Of a DNA stretch of 56,030 nt, positions 3,285 to 7,366 are shown in pieces; position 1 is the stretch's first letter, and each line of letters begins with the position of its first letter. Under the pieces are notes generated by a model that was given only the letters and a program-made list of their open reading frames with translations, had not been told where the DNA came from and searched no databases. Both the position numbers and the translations under genes were made by a program. Source of the DNA: a virus (taxonomy: Duplodnaviria; Caudoviricetes). The DNA lies in the IMG/VR virus record IMGVR_UViG_3300022744_000033, positions 1-56,030 of that record; one strand, written 5' to 3'.

Positions 3285-3339
3285 AGTAGGGTCACGTTAC
3301 AGGTGAGCGCGCATAGTAGCGCAAAGACTCAGGTATGGG

Positions 3340-3483
3340 TCAATCCGCTGCCCACACGCAACTGACGTAAACCCCCACCGCGAACACGAACACCGCTGCT
3401 GCAGCGGCCGGGTCCGCCAGGTTGCGGGCGATGCACCCAGCAACCTTGGCGGCGAACCACAGTTCGAGGATGCGGGTGGTCAC
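3340..3483 (-). CDS. Small hydrophobic hypothetical protein
   Basis: GTG start overlaps the methylase TGA (GTGA coupling); 47 aa. Confidence 0.4.
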   Translation of the reverse strand: MTTRILELWFAAKVAGCIARNLADPAAAAAVFVFAVGVYVSCVWAAD

Positions 3484-5522
3484 TTCAGCGCCCCCAGGCA
3501 CCGCGCCTCGGCAATCGCCACGTACTCGGGCGTCATGTCGATGCCGATGAACTGGAAGCCCTCCAGGATCGCCGCCTTGCCCGTGCTGCCGCTGCCCATG
3601 AACGGGTCCAGCACCACGCCGCCAGGAGGCGTCACCAGCCGGCACAGGTAGCGCATGAGGTCGGTGGGCTTGACGGTGGGGTGGACGTTCCCATCGCCAC
3701 GGTCGGACTTGCTTGCCTTCGCGCAGTAATAGAACCGGGCAGCACTGCCGGTGTCGAGCCGTCGCATCCCGGGCTCACCTTCGCGCCGCATATTCCCGTA
3801 GACGTTGCTGGTCTTCGGGCTGGGCGCGGTCGTGCTCACGTCGGCCATCTGCCCCGGCGCTTGCGGAAACGCCGCCAGAACCTCGTCGCTGCCGTCGTGA
3901 ATGATATTGGCGGGCCAGCGGCCGACGCGCTCGGAGTGGTCGAGGCCCTCGCGCTGGTCTTGCTTGCGCCCGCTTTCCTCGGCGCTCGTCTCGCCCGGCC
4001 GCTTCGGAAAAGCGCCGTTGGAGCCCCGTGAATGCGTGCTCACCACGTCAGTCCCCACCCTGCACCCGTCGATGTTCATCGCCCCCGTGCCATGCGTCAG
4101 GACGTTCTCACTCACGGTCCCGATCAGTGGCTTGCGGGCCACGCAGATCGGCTCCCATGCCGGTTTCAGGGCGGTGCCCCAGCCTTGCCATTGGCGGGCG
4201 GCGTCGGTGGCGGGGGCGAAGTCCCAGTGCGAGTTCTCAACCTTCTCCGGGTCGTTCATCCAGGGGCGTGCATAGCCCCCTTCAGCCGATCCGACAGTGC
4301 CGCCGTCACGCAGGCCCTTGAGGTTGTCGCGGCCGACGAAGTTTTCGTGCCCAGCCTTCGGCTTCATCCGCTCGGTGCGTTCCGCGCCAGCCGCCTTGTC
4401 GATGGCCTTCGACACGTCCAACGACTTCGGGAACCCCGACCCGTACACCCAAGCCATCTGATCCCGCACCTCGAACCCCGCATCCTCGATCGCGCACACC
4501 ATCCGGTGATAGGTCCGCGTGCCCGAGAACGCCAGCATGTGCCCGCCCGGCTTCAGCACGCGCAGCGCCTCGGCCCACATCTCGACGTTGTAAGCGACCT
4601 TTGTGCCATCCCAGTCCTTGCCCATAAACCCAGAAGCGGCTACGCTTGTCGGATGGACAACAAGATCGAACGTCAGTGCCCGGCCTGCGGAACCACCTAT
4701 CACGCTGACCCGGCGCGATTGAAGTTTGGCCGGCAAACCACTTGCAGCCGGGAATGCTCGTATCGCCTTCGCGGTGCCGGCCTTCAGCGTAGCCAACAGT
4801 ACCAGTGCGGCGGCTGCGGGAAGGTCGTCATTCGCCCGCCATCCCATAGCGATGCACGCCATGGGGCTGTGTTCTGTTCCGCAGGCTGCGCTTATGCGAA
4901 TCGCAAGCGAATCGTCGAAAAACCCTACAACTTCATTTCCGACGTCGACCGCTCCGCAGCCGCGAACAAGGCTTGGGAGACTCGCCGCCGGAACCCGAAG
5001 CCCTACCCCGATAGCGCCAGAAAGAAAGCCGCAGCCAGAGCGGTTGAGCGCATCCAGCAGGGGGGTGGTGTCAGCGCATTCGAGAATGAAGCAGCCCAGG
5101 TGTTGCGCGGCCTCGGGTTCGACGTCAGGCAGTCCGTTGCGATGCGGTCCAGCAACGGAACATTCGCCCATGTTTTCGACATCCTGATTCCGGCGCGTCG
5201 ACTCGTCATTGAATGCCACGGCACTTACTTCCACGGTGGCCGATGGAGTTGGCTCGACGCCGACGCCACCCAGCGCAAGAACTTGCTCTATGAGGAACGA
5301 AAGGTGGCAGCCGCTCGCAGGGTCGGCATTGACCTTCGCATCCTTTGGGAGCATGAGTTCAAGAAAGACAAGCGCGGCGCTTGCCTTTCCGTCGTTCGAT
5401 AGTTCATACGGCGGGTCGGTGACGATGCTGTCGACGCTGGCGTCGGGCATGCCGCGCATCACGTCGATGCAGTCGCCCAGGCGCAAGCTCACGCCCATCA
5501 GTTCCAGCAGTTCGCGACTCAT
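3480..5522 (-). CDS. N6-adenine/N4-cytosine DNA methyltransferase carrying a 256-codon in-frame insertion
   Basis: GDCIDVM...IVTDPPYEL catalytic motif, RVLKPGG, HPTVKP, and VLDPFMGSGSTG SAM-binding motif. ATG at 5522 overlaps the upstream stop. Removing 4632-5399 restores DPPYEL-GFMGKDWD. Confidence 0.9.
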   Translation of the reverse strand: MSRELLELMGVSLRLGDCIDVMRGMPDASVDSIVTDPPYELSNDGKASAALVFLELMLPKDAKVNADPASGCHLSFLIEQVLALGGVGVEPTPSATVEVSAVAFNDESTRRNQDVENMGECSVAGPHRNGLPDVEPEAAQHLGCFILECADTTPLLDALNRSGCGFLSGAIGVGLRVPAASLPSLVRGCGAVDVGNEVVGFFDDSLAIRISAACGTEHSPMACIAMGWRANDDLPAAAALVLLATLKAGTAKAIRAFPAASGLPAKLQSRRVSVIGGSAGRALTFDLVVHPTSVAASGFMGKDWDGTKVAYNVEMWAEALRVLKPGGHMLAFSGTRTYHRMVCAIEDAGFEVRDQMAWVYGSGFPKSLDVSKAIDKAAGAERTERMKPKAGHENFVGRDNLKGLRDGGTVGSAEGGYARPWMNDPEKVENSHWDFAPATDAARQWQGWGTALKPAWEPICVARKPLIGTVSENVLTHGTGAMNIDGCRVGTDVVSTHSRGSNGAFPKRPGETSAEESGRKQDQREGLDHSERVGRWPANIIHDGSDEVLAAFPQAPGQMADVSTTAPSPKTSNVYGNMRREGEPGMRRLDTGSAARFYYCAKASKSDRGDGNVHPTVKPTDLMRYLCRLVTPPGGVVLDPFMGSGSTGKAAILEGFQFIGIDMTPEYVAIAEARCLGALK
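4618..4646 (+). promoter_or_regulatory. Putative sigma70 junction promoter for the antisense endonuclease (leaderless)
   Basis: TTGCCC (4618-4623) - 17 nt - TACGCT (4641-4646), with the ATG starting at 4653. Confidence 0.5.
4632..5399. mobile_element. In-frame insertion element in the methylase (putative homing element; not an intein or intron)
   Basis: 768 bp separating PPYEL from GFMGK, almost entirely occupied by an antisense endonuclease ORF, with no Hint motifs. Confidence 0.8.
4653..5402 (+). CDS. Zn-finger + Vsr/DUF559-like (PD-(D/E)XK) putative homing endonuclease, antisense within the methylase
   Basis: CPACG, CSREC, CGGCG and CSAGC Cys pairs; C-terminal SAFE...FDILIPARRLVIECHGTYFHG...ILWEHE typical of Vsr-like nucleases; 249 aa. 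Confidence 0.85.
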   Translation: MDNKIERQCPACGTTYHADPARLKFGRQTTCSRECSYRLRGAGLQRSQQYQCGGCGKVVIRPPSHSDARHGAVFCSAGCAYANRKRIVEKPYNFISDVDRSAAANKAWETRRRNPKPYPDSARKKAAARAVERIQQGGGVSAFENEAAQVLRGLGFDVRQSVAMRSSNGTFAHVFDILIPARRLVIECHGTYFHGGRWSWLDADATQRKNLLYEERKVAAARRVGIDLRILWEHEFKKDKRGACLSVVR

Positions 5523-5809
5523 TTGATCCCCCGCGCAGCTGCCGCCCGCACCGCTTCCGGCGCATCCATCGCGTGCTTGTCCCGCATCGCCAGGCCCTGG
5601 GCCACCACCGGCAGCACCTTGCGGGTCACGGCGGCGCGCATGATGGCTCGGCGCATGGCCGGCATCGTGCCCAGGTAGGCGGACACCAGCCCCGGGCTGC
5701 AATCGGCCTCGGCCGCAATGGCGTCGCGCGTCATGCGCATGTAGCCGTCGCGCTCGGCCACGGCCAGGGCGGCGGTCATGATGGCCTCTCGGCGGTCGTT
5801 GGATTTCAT
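5519..5809 (-). CDS. TetR-like HTH transcriptional regulator
   Basis: RREAIMTAALAVAERDGY..MTRDAIAAEADCSPGLVSAY matches the TetR N-terminal HTH pattern. Confidence 0.75.
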   Translation of the reverse strand: MKSNDRREAIMTAALAVAERDGYMRMTRDAIAAEADCSPGLVSAYLGTMPAMRRAIMRAAVTRKVLPVVAQGLAMRDKHAMDAPEAVRAAAARGIK

Positions 5810-5828
5810 GGCAGTATGGTCGTAAAAG

Positions 5829-5844
5829 TTGACGGCATCGTCAC
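5829..5844. promoter_or_regulatory. Palindromic operator-like site (TGAC-N6-GTCA)
   Basis: Reads GTGACGATGCCGTCAA on the minus strand upstream of the TetR-like gene; matches the sites at 10245 and 13243. Confidence 0.5.
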
Positions 5845-6311
5845 AGTGTACCCCTTCCGGTGGCAAACGCAGCATCCCCGCCGCTGGCGAGCACCAGAGT
5901 GGCCCAACGCAACTGAGCAAGCTCGTGGTCATCGCCCCGCCAGCGCCAGCCGTGGTGCTTCACCTCGCGGCTGACGAACTGGGCGATGGTGTGGCCGACG
6001 TGGGCCTGGGTGATGACCACCGGCCGCCAGCCGATGAGGTCGGCGGACTTGATGTGCGCGTTCTCGGCCTTGGACTCGTTCGCCAGGCCGAAGCGGACCG
6101 GCACGCCGCGTGCGTCCACGAGGCACCCTGTGTTGTTGCGGTAGAGGTAGACCCCCTTGCGGGCTGCGTCCAGGCGTACCTCGACCTGCATGGCCGCTTC
6201 GCTGTTCCCCTTGATCGGCGGGGGCACCCGCGACTGGTCGGTCAGCAGGTGGCGCAGGTCATCCAGCGCGGCCGGGGGGATGGCCCACTTGCGAGCCCAT
6301 TCGGTCAGCAT
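5841..6311 (-). CDS. VRR-NUC domain nuclease
   Basis: SADLIG...SREVK...Q..W...V...GG motif pattern; adjacent to the helicase module. Confidence 0.75.
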   Translation of the reverse strand: MLTEWARKWAIPPAALDDLRHLLTDQSRVPPPIKGNSEAAMQVEVRLDAARKGVYLYRNNTGCLVDARGVPVRFGLANESKAENAHIKSADLIGWRPVVITQAHVGHTIAQFVSREVKHHGWRWRGDDHELAQLRWATLVLASGGDAAFATGRGTL

Positions 6312-7366
6312 TGCATCACCGCTTCGATGAACGCTTGCGCGGCGGGAGCCACGAGTCCATTGCCGTAGCCGCGCAACTGGACCACTCGGGCGGGAGCCCC
6401 ATCAGCCAGCGGGAATGTGCCGGGCTCAACCGGCCGCCACTTGCCGTCCCGGCAAGCGAGCCAGTCAGCAGATGACCAGTGGCCGTTAGTCGGGCCGGAC
6501 CTTGGGGCACCAGCGTGAACACTTGCTCGCTCAAGGGCTTGCCCGTTTTCATCTGCGCCCGTGACTCCAGCCACTCCTGGCCCGCAAAGGGGCTGATCCA
6601 GTCTCGGGCTGTCGGGGCTGCCCAGCCGGTCAGGCACACCGACGCCGCCAGATCCGGCCCCGTGCTGCGCATCGCTTCCGCCAGCCCGCCCTCGAATGAG
6701 CGCACGCCCTTCTCGGCCAGGGCCGCTGTTGGAGTCGGCCAGCCGGCCAAGTTCGCGGTGGTCCCCACCGGCCACTGGTCGTCCCAGTCGGTCAGACGTG
6801 CCGCTCCGTAGGTCTTCAAATGAATCGTGTGGTCCGGGCCGTAGCAGTGCGTGTTCGCTTCGGTAGTTGGAGTCGGCCACCCAGTACAGCCGCTGTCGGA
6901 TGTGGGGTGCGCCGACGCCCGCAGCGCACAGATCGACCGCCCCAACGGCGTAGTTCTCGCCTTCCAGGTCAGTCGCCACAAGGTCGAGCCAAGCGAGGCC
7001 GTCTTTGCTTGCAACTTGCTCGCCAAGGACGACTGAAGGGCGGCAGACTCGGATGAGGTGCAGGAAGTGTGGCCATAGATGCCGCTCGTCAGCAAACCCA
7101 TCTCCTTTGCCTGCGTTGCTGAAAGGCTGGCAAGGGCATGAGCCGGTCCACACAGGGCGGTCATCAGCCCAGCCGGCCCTTCGGAGGGCGTAGGACCAAA
7201 TGCCGATTCCGGCGAAGAAATGACATTGTGTAAAGCCAGCCAAGTCTGCGGGTCGCACGTCCGCAATGCTTCGCGTATCGACGTATCCGTAGGGAATGTG
7301 CCCTGCATAAATCAACTCCTGCAGCCAAGCTGCGGTCTTAGGGTCGAACTCGTTGTAGTAGTTCAT
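6305..7366 (-). CDS. C5-cytosine DNA methyltransferase, large (alpha-like) subunit
   Basis: FFAGIG (motif I), GSCPCQPFS (IV), GEQV (VI), APHIRQRLYWVA (VIII), QLRGYGN (X). Motif IX is absent from this frame. Confidence 0.85.
   Translation of the reverse strand: MNYYNEFDPKTAAWLQELIYAGHIPYGYVDTRSIADVRPADLAGFTQCHFFAGIGIWSYALRRAGWADDRPVWTGSCPCQPFSNAGKGDGFADERHLWPHFLHLIRVCRPSVVLGEQVASKDGLAWLDLVATDLEGENYAVGAVDLCAAGVGAPHIRQRLYWVADSNYRSEHALLRPGPHDSFEDLRSGTSDRLGRPVAGGDHRELGRLADSNSGPGREGRALIRGRAGGSDAQHGAGSGGVGVPDRLGSPDSPRLDQPLCGPGVAGVTGADENGQALERASVHAGAPRSGPTNGHWSSADWLACRDGKWRPVEPGTFPLADGAPARVVQLRGYGNGLVAPAAQAFIEAVMQC
6316..7308 (-). CDS. C5 methyltransferase small (beta-like) subunit in an overlapping frame (start uncertain, possibly near 7101)
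   Basis: Repeated GWPTP units and GRLSPAHSRWLMGLP, resembling motif IX, nested in a different frame of the alpha gene. Confidence 0.7.
   Translation of the reverse strand: MQGTFPTDTSIREALRTCDPQTWLALHNVISSPESAFGPTPSEGPAGLMTALCGPAHALASLSATQAKEMGLLTSGIYGHTSCTSSESAALQSSLASKLQAKTASLGSTLWRLTWKARTTPLGRSICALRASAHPTSDSGCTGWPTPTTEANTHCYGPDHTIHLKTYGAARLTDWDDQWPVGTTANLAGWPTPTAALAEKGVRSFEGGLAEAMRSTGPDLAASVCLTGWAAPTARDWISPFAGQEWLESRAQMKTGKPLSEQVFTLVPQGPARLTATGHLLTGSLAGTASGGRLSPAHSRWLMGLPPEWSSCAATAMDSWLPPRKRSSKR

Follow-up and report, generated by a model that had tools for sequence, protein, structure and literature searches.

A Vsr-like nuclease gene lying antisense and in codon register within a phage DNA methylase gene: a likely splicing-free homing-type element

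How can a nuclease gene settle beside the catalytic motif of a phage DNA methylase when neither an intron nor an intein removes it from the product? This question is raised by the viral record IMGVR_UViG_3300022744_000033 (Caudoviricetes), which was analysed over its whole length of 56,030 bp (hereafter the window) and is complete at that length, with direct terminal repeats. In this window, an N6/N4 DNA methylase gene is interrupted in frame by an insert whose opposite strand encodes a nuclease-like protein of 249 amino acids (aa). A first-pass annotation, made from the letters alone, took this insert, present as a single copy in the window, for a minimal selfish homing element that avoids truncating its host gene by lying antisense and in codon register instead of splicing out. 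This view is largely supported by the register, the open frame, the selection on the two strands and the existence of empty alleles. With good though not full confidence, the insert is considered here as a homing-type selfish element without splicing, made of a Vsr-like gene nested antisense and in register in the phage methylase. From the comparison of sequences, we infer that the nuclease cleaves DNA, that the element homes and that the methylase is active.

The methylase frame (protein P0001) is stop-free on translation. Its product matches the N6_N4_Mtase family of Pfam (PF01555, 1.3e-30, best stretch aa 311-672) and the DNA methyltransferase family phrog_67 of PHROGs (9.4e-74). With DPPYEL at aa 36-41 and the first residue of GFMGKDWD at aa 298, a gap of exactly 256 codons without stop is left, as the first-pass annotation had counted. 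The insertion point is located two residues past the catalytic DPPY. Two other details noticed at first reading are indeed found in the sequence: only 21 nt of the insert (4632-4652) lie outside the nuclease open reading frame (ORF), and the TAG stop of the nuclease gene is complementary to the CTA codon of Leu41 (5400-5402). The G+C content of the insert is 0.585-0.635 versus 0.66-0.735 for its flanks. Excision of the insert restores a normal motif, as had been proposed: 89 insert-free homologs read DPPYxx followed directly by [GS]F[ML]G. Downstream of the insert, the methylase shares 56-66% identity with insert-free homologs. The coordinates of these features and of those discussed below are collected in Table 1.

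Table 1. Features of the insert-bearing methylase locus (positions in the window)
Feature	Positions	Strand	Extent and basis
Whole N6/N4 DNA methylase frame including the insert	3480..5522	-	680 aa plus stop; Pfam, PHROGs
Methylase part upstream of the insert, ending in DPPYEL	5400..5522	-	aa 1-41; identical in insert-free P0053
Insert, 768 bp, 256 stop-free codons in the methylase frame	4632..5399		alignment with insert-free homologs; empty-allele contig of run X4
Methylase part downstream of the insert, starting with GFMGKDWD	3483..4631	-	aa 298-680; intact, in frame
Nuclease gene, Cys-rich zinc-finger N-terminus and C-terminal Vsr-like domain	4653..5402	+	249 aa; profile, fold, dN/dS
Candidate promoter spanning the junction	4618..4646	+	inferred from positional conservation
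Flank tract DWDGTKVAYN with WDG.K signature	4587..4616	-	aa 303-312; candidate co-conversion tract

An open frame opposite to a single gene can have a trivial origin, and the first-pass annotation itself warned that in-register antisense frames of G+C-rich genes are often stop-free by chance. In its strongest form, this objection says that a free-standing nuclease gene killed the methylase by insertion and that the open frame is a by-product of G+C-rich codon usage. In this register, a methylase-frame stop can come only from three sense codons of the nuclease gene (TTA, CTA and TCA), each of which G+C-rich genomes use rarely. The window taken by itself would be free of such stops with a probability of 0.39 under a model based on the codon usage of the flanking sequences and of 0.04 under a position-specific composition model. 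The warning was thus justified for the single locus, and it does not hold for the family. Loci carrying nuclease homologs were drawn from three collections, and 55 non-redundant loci were kept after 8 near-identical copies had been dropped. In 38 of the 55 loci, the insert is preceded by DPPY and followed by [GS]F[ML]x..W[DN]; this motif pair is in register, with zero methylase-frame stops, in all 38, and no locus associates both motifs with such a stop. Among the other loci, one contig ends at the junction (L113), one nuclease is broken (L107) and 15 loci lack the motif pair. The insertion site is DPPYxx|[GS]F[ML]G in all 38 motif-flanked loci, and the insert length is a multiple of three in every such locus checked. 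The antisense insertion in codon register at an active-site motif, first described from the window, is therefore a property of 38 loci out of 38, and out-of-frame homologs or methylase-frame stops number 0 among them.

The expected numbers of stops were obtained from the position-specific composition model, which superseded an earlier codon-usage model that relied on crude ORF sets, lacked a background for L003 and used fewer than 600 codons for several loci. Under the composition model, 1.7 to 11.2 TTA, CTA or TCA codons are expected per gene while none is observed in the 38 motif-flanked loci, and the summed log10 probability of having no stop is -91 (-45.7 for the first 20 loci). Forbidden codons are missing even at a G+C content of 0.39, the low-G+C loci being L034, L038, L104 and L105; for loci with a G+C content of 0.39-0.49, 5-11 stops would be expected. 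Each of the four remaining frames (two antisense, two sense) contains 1-36 stops in the first 20 in-frame loci examined. In the first set, 25 loci have a near-full-length match, and the antisense frame is open over the whole nuclease gene in 22 of these. These 22 loci share one register and have DPPY upstream in that frame, and FMGxxW[DN] was detected downstream in 19 of them by the first pattern used, L020, L023 and L034 having FMS or FMN variants. Furthermore, L042, which has only a partial nuclease match, carries a stop-free insert of 255 codons at the same site.

The copies located outside of the motif context provide a natural control, since 9 of the 15 carry 3-16 forbidden codons. Together with the lengths, always multiples of three, and with a downstream methylase that is intact and constrained, these data refute at the family level the idea of a methylase killed by insertion, which we regard as very improbable. 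The comparative evidence suggesting that selection keeps the host frame open is very strong. Some of the unflanked copies deserve mention for their surroundings. In L032 and L051, the nuclease gene adjoins a methylase fragment starting at FMGK, the DPPY part being missing upstream. In L122 and L127, it lies within arrays of split and duplicated methylase pieces, and the nuclease gene of L127 adjoins an intact, empty DPPYELSFMGKGWD site. The broken nuclease of L107 (118-866) belongs to a window-type copy (64% identity) found on a low-coverage contig of 1,005 bp; its frame is broken after 94 codons and DPPY was not found in frame. Either this copy is decaying or the contig is misassembled.

If the element spares its host by being read through, selection should differ between the two strands of the insert. 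The first-pass annotation expected the nuclease strand to be under purifying selection and stops to be avoided on the opposite one, and this is what the comparison of the same aligned codons indicates. The ratio of nonsynonymous to synonymous substitution rates (dN/dS) is 0.14-0.5 in the nuclease frame versus 0.7-1.65 in the methylase-frame reading, and the mean amino-acid identity over 253 pairs is 43% versus 26.5%. The most variable position is position 3 of the nuclease codons. The contrast in dN/dS and identity indicates that the peptide encoded by the insert in the methylase frame is unconstrained, apart from the ban on stops. In a model of the 680-aa methylase obtained with AlphaFold2 from a 50-sequence alignment, blocks of the core (aa 1-40 and 310-360) have predicted local distance difference test scores (pLDDT) of 83-98, while the insert region (aa 42-298) has mostly scores of 27-74. 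This peptide of about 256 aa is thus probably unstructured, according to the model. Wherever a locus extends to the end of the methylase, the part downstream of the insert is intact, and its invariant motifs are kept in insert-bearing lineages. Its uncorrected ratio of nonsynonymous to synonymous polymorphism (pN/pS) has a median of 0.56 among insert-bearing loci and is about 0.4-0.56 in insert-bearing lineages.

Removal of the insert by splicing would offer another way of sparing the methylase. Inteins are recognised by a Hint domain, by an N-terminal Cys, Ser or Ala and by a C-terminal His-Asn followed by Cys, Ser or Thr, and group I or II introns by the RNA of a ribozyme core; the insert fits neither description. 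No Pfam domain, Hint/intein or other, was detected at E <= 0.1 in aa 42-297 of the methylase, and a search of positions 3400-6000 against Rfam at E <= 10 returned three chance-level, non-intron matches only. The N-terminal residues of the insert vary from one locus to another (SNDGK, SKGDS, TSGRP, NDGTE, FSPDD), the terminal His-Asn is absent across loci and the residue that follows the insert is always Gly; in the window, the insert ends in AAS before this Gly. Pfam, Rfam and the comparison of insert ends thus bear out the first reading of the window, which saw no recognisable domain, no Hint block, no terminal His-Asn and no room for a ribozyme core. The insert would therefore be neither an intron nor an intein and is presumably not spliced.

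A cryptic splicing, due to an unrecognised ribozyme or to a non-canonical protein splicing or cleavage that would remove the insert from the mature methylase, has nothing positive in its favour except that the same methylase family hosts true inteins at another site, YG|C...N|SGFPK. Besides the missing hallmarks listed above and the room of 21 nt left outside the nuclease ORF, a conserved stop-free frame would be needless if the RNA were spliced, and the methylase-frame peptide evolves neutrally and has no confident predicted fold. Cryptic splicing is therefore rated as highly unlikely. The intein-like insertions at YG|C...N|SGFPK were observed in P0050, P0093 and P0095, P0093 having a precomputed LAGLIDADG match in Pfam, as well as in L051 (2102-3862) and L086 (2378-3844).

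Is the insert mobile? Its distribution among methylases argues for it. As required by the first-pass proposal, close homologs devoid of the insert exist: 89 were found among the methylase homologs P0046-P0164. One of them, P0053 (416 aa), has exactly the same first 41 residues as the methylase of the window, shares most of its C-terminus and reads DPPYEL-GFMGKGWD. The methylase of the window is 34-51% identical to most other insert-bearing methylases, less than to the insert-free homologs (56-66%); L035 and L039 are more identical to it, but over only 44% and 21% of the query. A methylase tree was built from 19 insert-bearing and 26 insert-free rows, the latter being every third of 79; L035, whose downstream part has 178 aa, was excluded. 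This tree implies a minimum of 5 changes in the presence of the insert, and well-supported branches force 3 of them. A single clade of insert-bearing methylases is rejected by the approximately unbiased (AU) test (p = 0.0058).

Empty alleles were also searched for in public freshwater and other aquatic metagenomes, using assembled contigs among 24 runs matched at 88% likeness, a design from which no conclusion can be drawn on depths. Runs X3 and X6 contain empty-allele contigs that join about position 4591 to position 5404. A contig from run X4 covers 5404-5552 with 2 differences; translated in the methylase frame, its loose end gives DPPYEL-GFMGKGWD. The same three runs, which come from three studies, also contain contigs wholly internal to the insert, indicating that both alleles are present in the same samples. 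The nuclease had zero matches in a tblastn search of 50,697 GenBank phage records, and the insert was found in uncultured viral contigs, metagenomes and metagenome-assembled genomes only. As far as sequence comparison can tell, traits of homing elements are present here: a precise site in a conserved motif, a sporadic distribution and empty alleles in close relatives. At the site itself, the otherwise normal methylases P0051 and P0104 have about 28-31 extra residues placed exactly at DPPYxL|GFMG, which could be remnants of degraded inserts or a natural variation of a loop that tolerates changes in length.

These observations bear on the idea that the nuclease is an immobile, fixed partner of the methylase, both forming a nested pair akin to a restriction-modification or addiction system. 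The two genes are physically inseparable here, and Vsr-like and DUF559-like folds are also known from restriction and repair enzymes. However, most close homologs of the methylase are insert-free, the insert-bearing methylases do not form one clade, and both alleles occur in the same metagenomes. Like homing elements, the insert sits in a conserved active-site motif, whereas a partner gene would have no need to occupy a catalytic loop at the cost of 256 junk codons. A fixed pair is therefore hardly credible.

The protein encoded by the antisense gene (P0002) has 43 homologs at E <= 1e-3, many of them of 248-251 aa and 54-67% identical to it. In an alignment of 31 sequences, zinc-finger-like cysteines are invariant in the N-terminal part, as are D176, E187 and H194 in the C-terminal one. 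In PHROGs, aa 135-247 match phrog_3339, annotated as homing endonuclease (2e-8), and aa 4-107 match families annotated as HNH endonuclease. The match to the Vsr family of Pfam is weak (15.2 bits for a cut-off of 27 bits). The profile of the nuclease family detects the E. coli Vsr endonuclease (1cw0) with hmmsearch at E = 4e-4, and in the alignment of this profile to 1cw0, Asp51 and His69 of Vsr correspond to D176 and H194. The AlphaFold2 model of P0002 has a mean pLDDT of 84, and a Foldseek search with this model retrieves Vsr (1cw0, E = 1.1e-4) and, less strongly, the catalytic domain of I-Bth0305I (3r3p, target TM score 0.67, E = 0.018). The nuclease is thus predicted to have a Vsr-type fold, with conserved acidic and histidine residues at the catalytic positions. 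Translation, family profile and fold match agree with the zinc-finger and Vsr-type nuclease first read on this strand. With its full-length ORF, purifying selection and Vsr-like profile and fold, it is apparently an intact site-specific nuclease. A distant, free-standing paralog occurs in L020 (1942-2643, - strand), directly downstream of the insert-bearing methylase and on the methylase strand; it is 24% identical to the nuclease (E = 2e-6) and has the same zinc-finger and Vsr-like layout.

An antisense gene nested in a methylase raises the question of its own expression. In the window, a -35-like hexamer TTGCCC (4618-4623) is separated by a 17-nt spacer from a -10-like hexamer TACGCT (4641-4646), which is followed by 6 nt and an ATG. 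The first hexamer is the antisense of the M-G-K codons of the methylase, and the second one lies inside the insert. The arrangement recurs in the family. Starting from the antisense Met codon of FMG, with junction distances measured from a frame-based anchor, a TAnnnT hexamer comes 17 or 18 nt later in 13 of 20 loci; a further 19 loci include 9 with this spacing. Similarly, when distances are counted back from the start codon, 13 of 37 loci have TAnnnT exactly 6 nt away, while none of the other distances between 0 and 33 is shared by more than 3 loci. Many loci devoid of this 6-nt spacing have Shine-Dalgarno-like sequences. L001, for instance, has TTGCCC followed by a 17-nt spacer and TG-n-TATAAT. 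Transcription of the nuclease gene thus appears to start from a promoter lying across the junction, and a leaderless nuclease mRNA is suggested for the subgroup of the window.

The sequence located right after the insertion site may keep a trace of transfer. The signature WDG.K was found there in 12 of the 14 loci whose nuclease is at least 49% identical to that of the window and in 0 of the 89 insert-free homologs, a contrast that concerns a motif picked after inspection and an unbalanced sample, these 89 being the nearest matches of the window. At this position, the insert-free homologs read WD[AKSR][ST]G... or WDYDVP.... On the downstream-methylase side, the empty-allele contigs align only to 4587-4591. 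This flank, which accompanies the insert, resembles a co-conversion tract some ten codons long.

These data can be assembled into a scheme of splicing-free homing. During co-infection, the nuclease would cut the uninterrupted DNA encoding DPPYEL|GFMGK in insert-free alleles, and repair would copy the element into the cut allele together with about ten codons of flanking methylase. The harm done to the recipient gene would be limited by the insert length, a multiple of three, and by the purge of TTA, CTA and TCA from the nuclease gene, these codons being purged because they are stops on the methylase strand. The methylase would be translated straight through a stretch of about 256 aa that evolves neutrally, and its remainder would be made in frame. 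The nuclease would have its own start signals, with a -35 hexamer borrowed from the antisense of the FMGK codons and a -10 hexamer brought by the insert.

Several observations weigh against this scheme or parts of it. The open frame of the window, taken alone, is compatible with chance (P 0.04-0.39). Six copies without the motif pair (L086, 3986-4795; L122, 1271-2125; L127, 2483-3289; L116, L126 and L133) nevertheless have zero TTA, CTA or TCA codons, with probabilities of 0.0002-0.04 each under the composition model, and their antisense frame ends just outside the nuclease gene. Read-through of the methylase therefore fails to account for every case of avoidance; a recent exit of these copies from the in-frame state, or another use of the antisense frame, are possible explanations. 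A single clade of the seven methylases that carry a window-type nuclease was not rejected by the AU test (p = 0.099), so that incongruence between nuclease and host within this subgroup lacks statistical support. The choice of WDG.K after inspection has been mentioned above. Concerning expression, the hexamers of the window are weak (4/6 positions for the -35-like and 3/6 for the -10-like one) and a standard sigma-70 scan of positions 3300-6000 returned 0 sites, which leaves positional conservation as the sole ground for proposing the promoter. L021 and L024 have no clear start codon at the usual place: in L021 the only candidate is a TTG that immediately follows the -10-like hexamer, and L024 lacks a start codon altogether. 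The nucleases of these two loci may be starting to decay while the methylase frame is still open.

The last objection concerns the host enzyme, since an insert two residues past DPPY may impair methylase activity. Hence a different account of the open frame, in which it would be kept mainly against premature termination, through polarity or mRNA decay affecting the downstream phage genes, and the read-through protein would be inactive. The position of the insertion and its roughly 256 poorly structured residues are in agreement with this account, and so are the long ORFs neighbouring the methylase gene, all located on the methylase strand. The six copies that avoid antisense stops without any methylase to be read through also hint at a benefit of translation itself. 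However, the lengths are always multiples of three, owing to which the 383 downstream aa are read in the methylase frame, and this part keeps its invariant motifs with a pN/pS of about 0.4-0.56. Moreover, the variation of about 28-31 residues seen at this site in P0051 and P0104 suggests that the loop tolerates insertions. An open frame serving an inactive protein is thus considered unlikely.

Among the neighbouring genes, a C5 cytosine methylase-like gene (6305-7366, - strand, with motifs FAGIG and PCQPFS) adjoins the methylase operon. An ORF of 330 aa (6316-7308), on the same strand and in another frame, overlaps it almost wholly and is probably a chance product of G+C-rich sequence.

How does this element compare with known nuclease insertions? 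The partial precedent named by the first-pass annotation, the ShiLan insertion, is real: it is carried by an actinophage methylase, has no stop in the host frame, encodes a same-strand, out-of-frame HNH nuclease and lacks intron and intein features (PMC11855218; Gosselin et al. 2023, PMC9957025). The more recent paper states that it also surveys further out-of-frame endonuclease insertions (Arsenault, Gosselin and Gogarten 2025, PMC11855218). Both hosts belong to the same methylase family. A tblastn search with the insert-free homolog P0053 matched 375 Mycobacterium phage records, and gp74 of phage Filuzino was 70% identical over the N-terminal 113 residues. Both inserts have a stop-free host frame without intron or intein features, a nuclease in another frame that fills nearly all of the insert, a patchy distribution and a host-frame peptide predicted with poor confidence. 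Furthermore, both nucleases have a similar Cys-rich N-terminal region (CxxC ... CSRxCS).

The two differ by the strand, the fold and the site. The ShiLan nuclease is of HNH type and is read in the +3 frame of the sense strand, whereas the present one is antisense and Vsr-like. The HNH insert of Filuzino lies between ALKPSYEP and AFEPVVVARKP, whereas the present element is located at DPPYxL|GFMG. In Filuzino, the DPPYEL-AFMGK site is uninterrupted and the sense-strand, out-of-frame HNH ORF is elsewhere in the gene (L181, 1395-1904). A second in-frame insertion in P0104 (680 aa), between ALKPAQE and PIIVARKPL, occupies the same site as that of Filuzino; it starts with IIVVARK, repeating the downstream flank, a feature also seen in Filuzino, and by analogy is probably another read-through nuclease insert. 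Selfish inserts of at least three kinds thus occupy three sites in this methylase family.

Antisense Vsr-like nucleases are not new in themselves. Antisense LAGLIDADG and VSR-like homing nucleases lying inside actinophage inteins are described in a 2025 preprint (bioRxiv 10.1101/2025.01.02.630785). There too, a Vsr-like nuclease, possibly of EDxHD type, faces an open host frame; in that case, however, the region is removed by the splicing domain of the intein, while the present element has no splicing domain and lies in a methylase. Free-standing Vsr-like genes are also found in the so-called fractured genes, in which the host is split into two genes joined by split inteins (Dassa et al. 2009, PMC2677866). 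They have in common with the present element a Vsr-like catalytic domain and conserved sites of phage genes, but here the host gene remains one reading frame and is not spliced. I-Bth0305I, whose catalytic domain is among the fold matches of the nuclease, is reportedly a Vsr-like, EDxHD homing endonuclease carried by a self-splicing group I intron, which is missing here. The seg and mob genes of T-even phages are free-standing homing endonuclease genes that perform intronless homing by cleavage and co-conversion of flanks. They share with the present element the independence from introns and inteins, but they are located between genes or split genes instead of being read through in frame.

The literature search brought up no methylase with a nuclease insertion that is antisense, devoid of an intein and read through, the supplements and repository of PMC11855218, which may list related cases, being outside its scope. 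The claim that an antisense Vsr-like version would be a distinct variant therefore stands as regards strand, fold and site relative to ShiLan; it must be narrowed since antisense Vsr-like nucleases had been reported earlier, only inside inteins. Relative to ShiLan, the element is best regarded as a variant of the same splicing-free, read-through kind, with an antisense orientation, a Vsr-type nuclease and a different site.

In the usual view, homing endonuclease genes can persist in essential or useful genes only by means of self-splicing introns or inteins. ShiLan (2025) gave the first hint of a third route, that of being translated through, and the present family makes this route general and measurable, with a different nuclease fold, the opposite strand, a different site and dozens of diverged lineages whose G+C content ranges from 0.39 to 0.70. 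We lean slightly towards a broader proposal, namely that these loci represent a widespread and so far undescribed class of homing elements, characterised by the lack of splicing, antisense in-register nesting, avoidance of three codons, a junction promoter and an active methylase bearing a neutral loop of about 27 kDa. If this is true, the six unflanked open copies would point to an additional role for translation of that strand, for instance in controlling the expression of the nuclease.

The complete avoidance of three sense codons offers a searchable criterion for finding more such elements, and these loci are a natural example of a strand on which selection is shaped only by the avoidance of stops read on the other strand. 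They also provide testable systems for the tolerance of the methylase catalytic loop to insertion, the expression of nested antisense genes and the specificity of Vsr-type nucleases. For annotation, it should be kept in mind that oversized methylases in viral metagenomes may hide a nuclease gene on the opposite strand.

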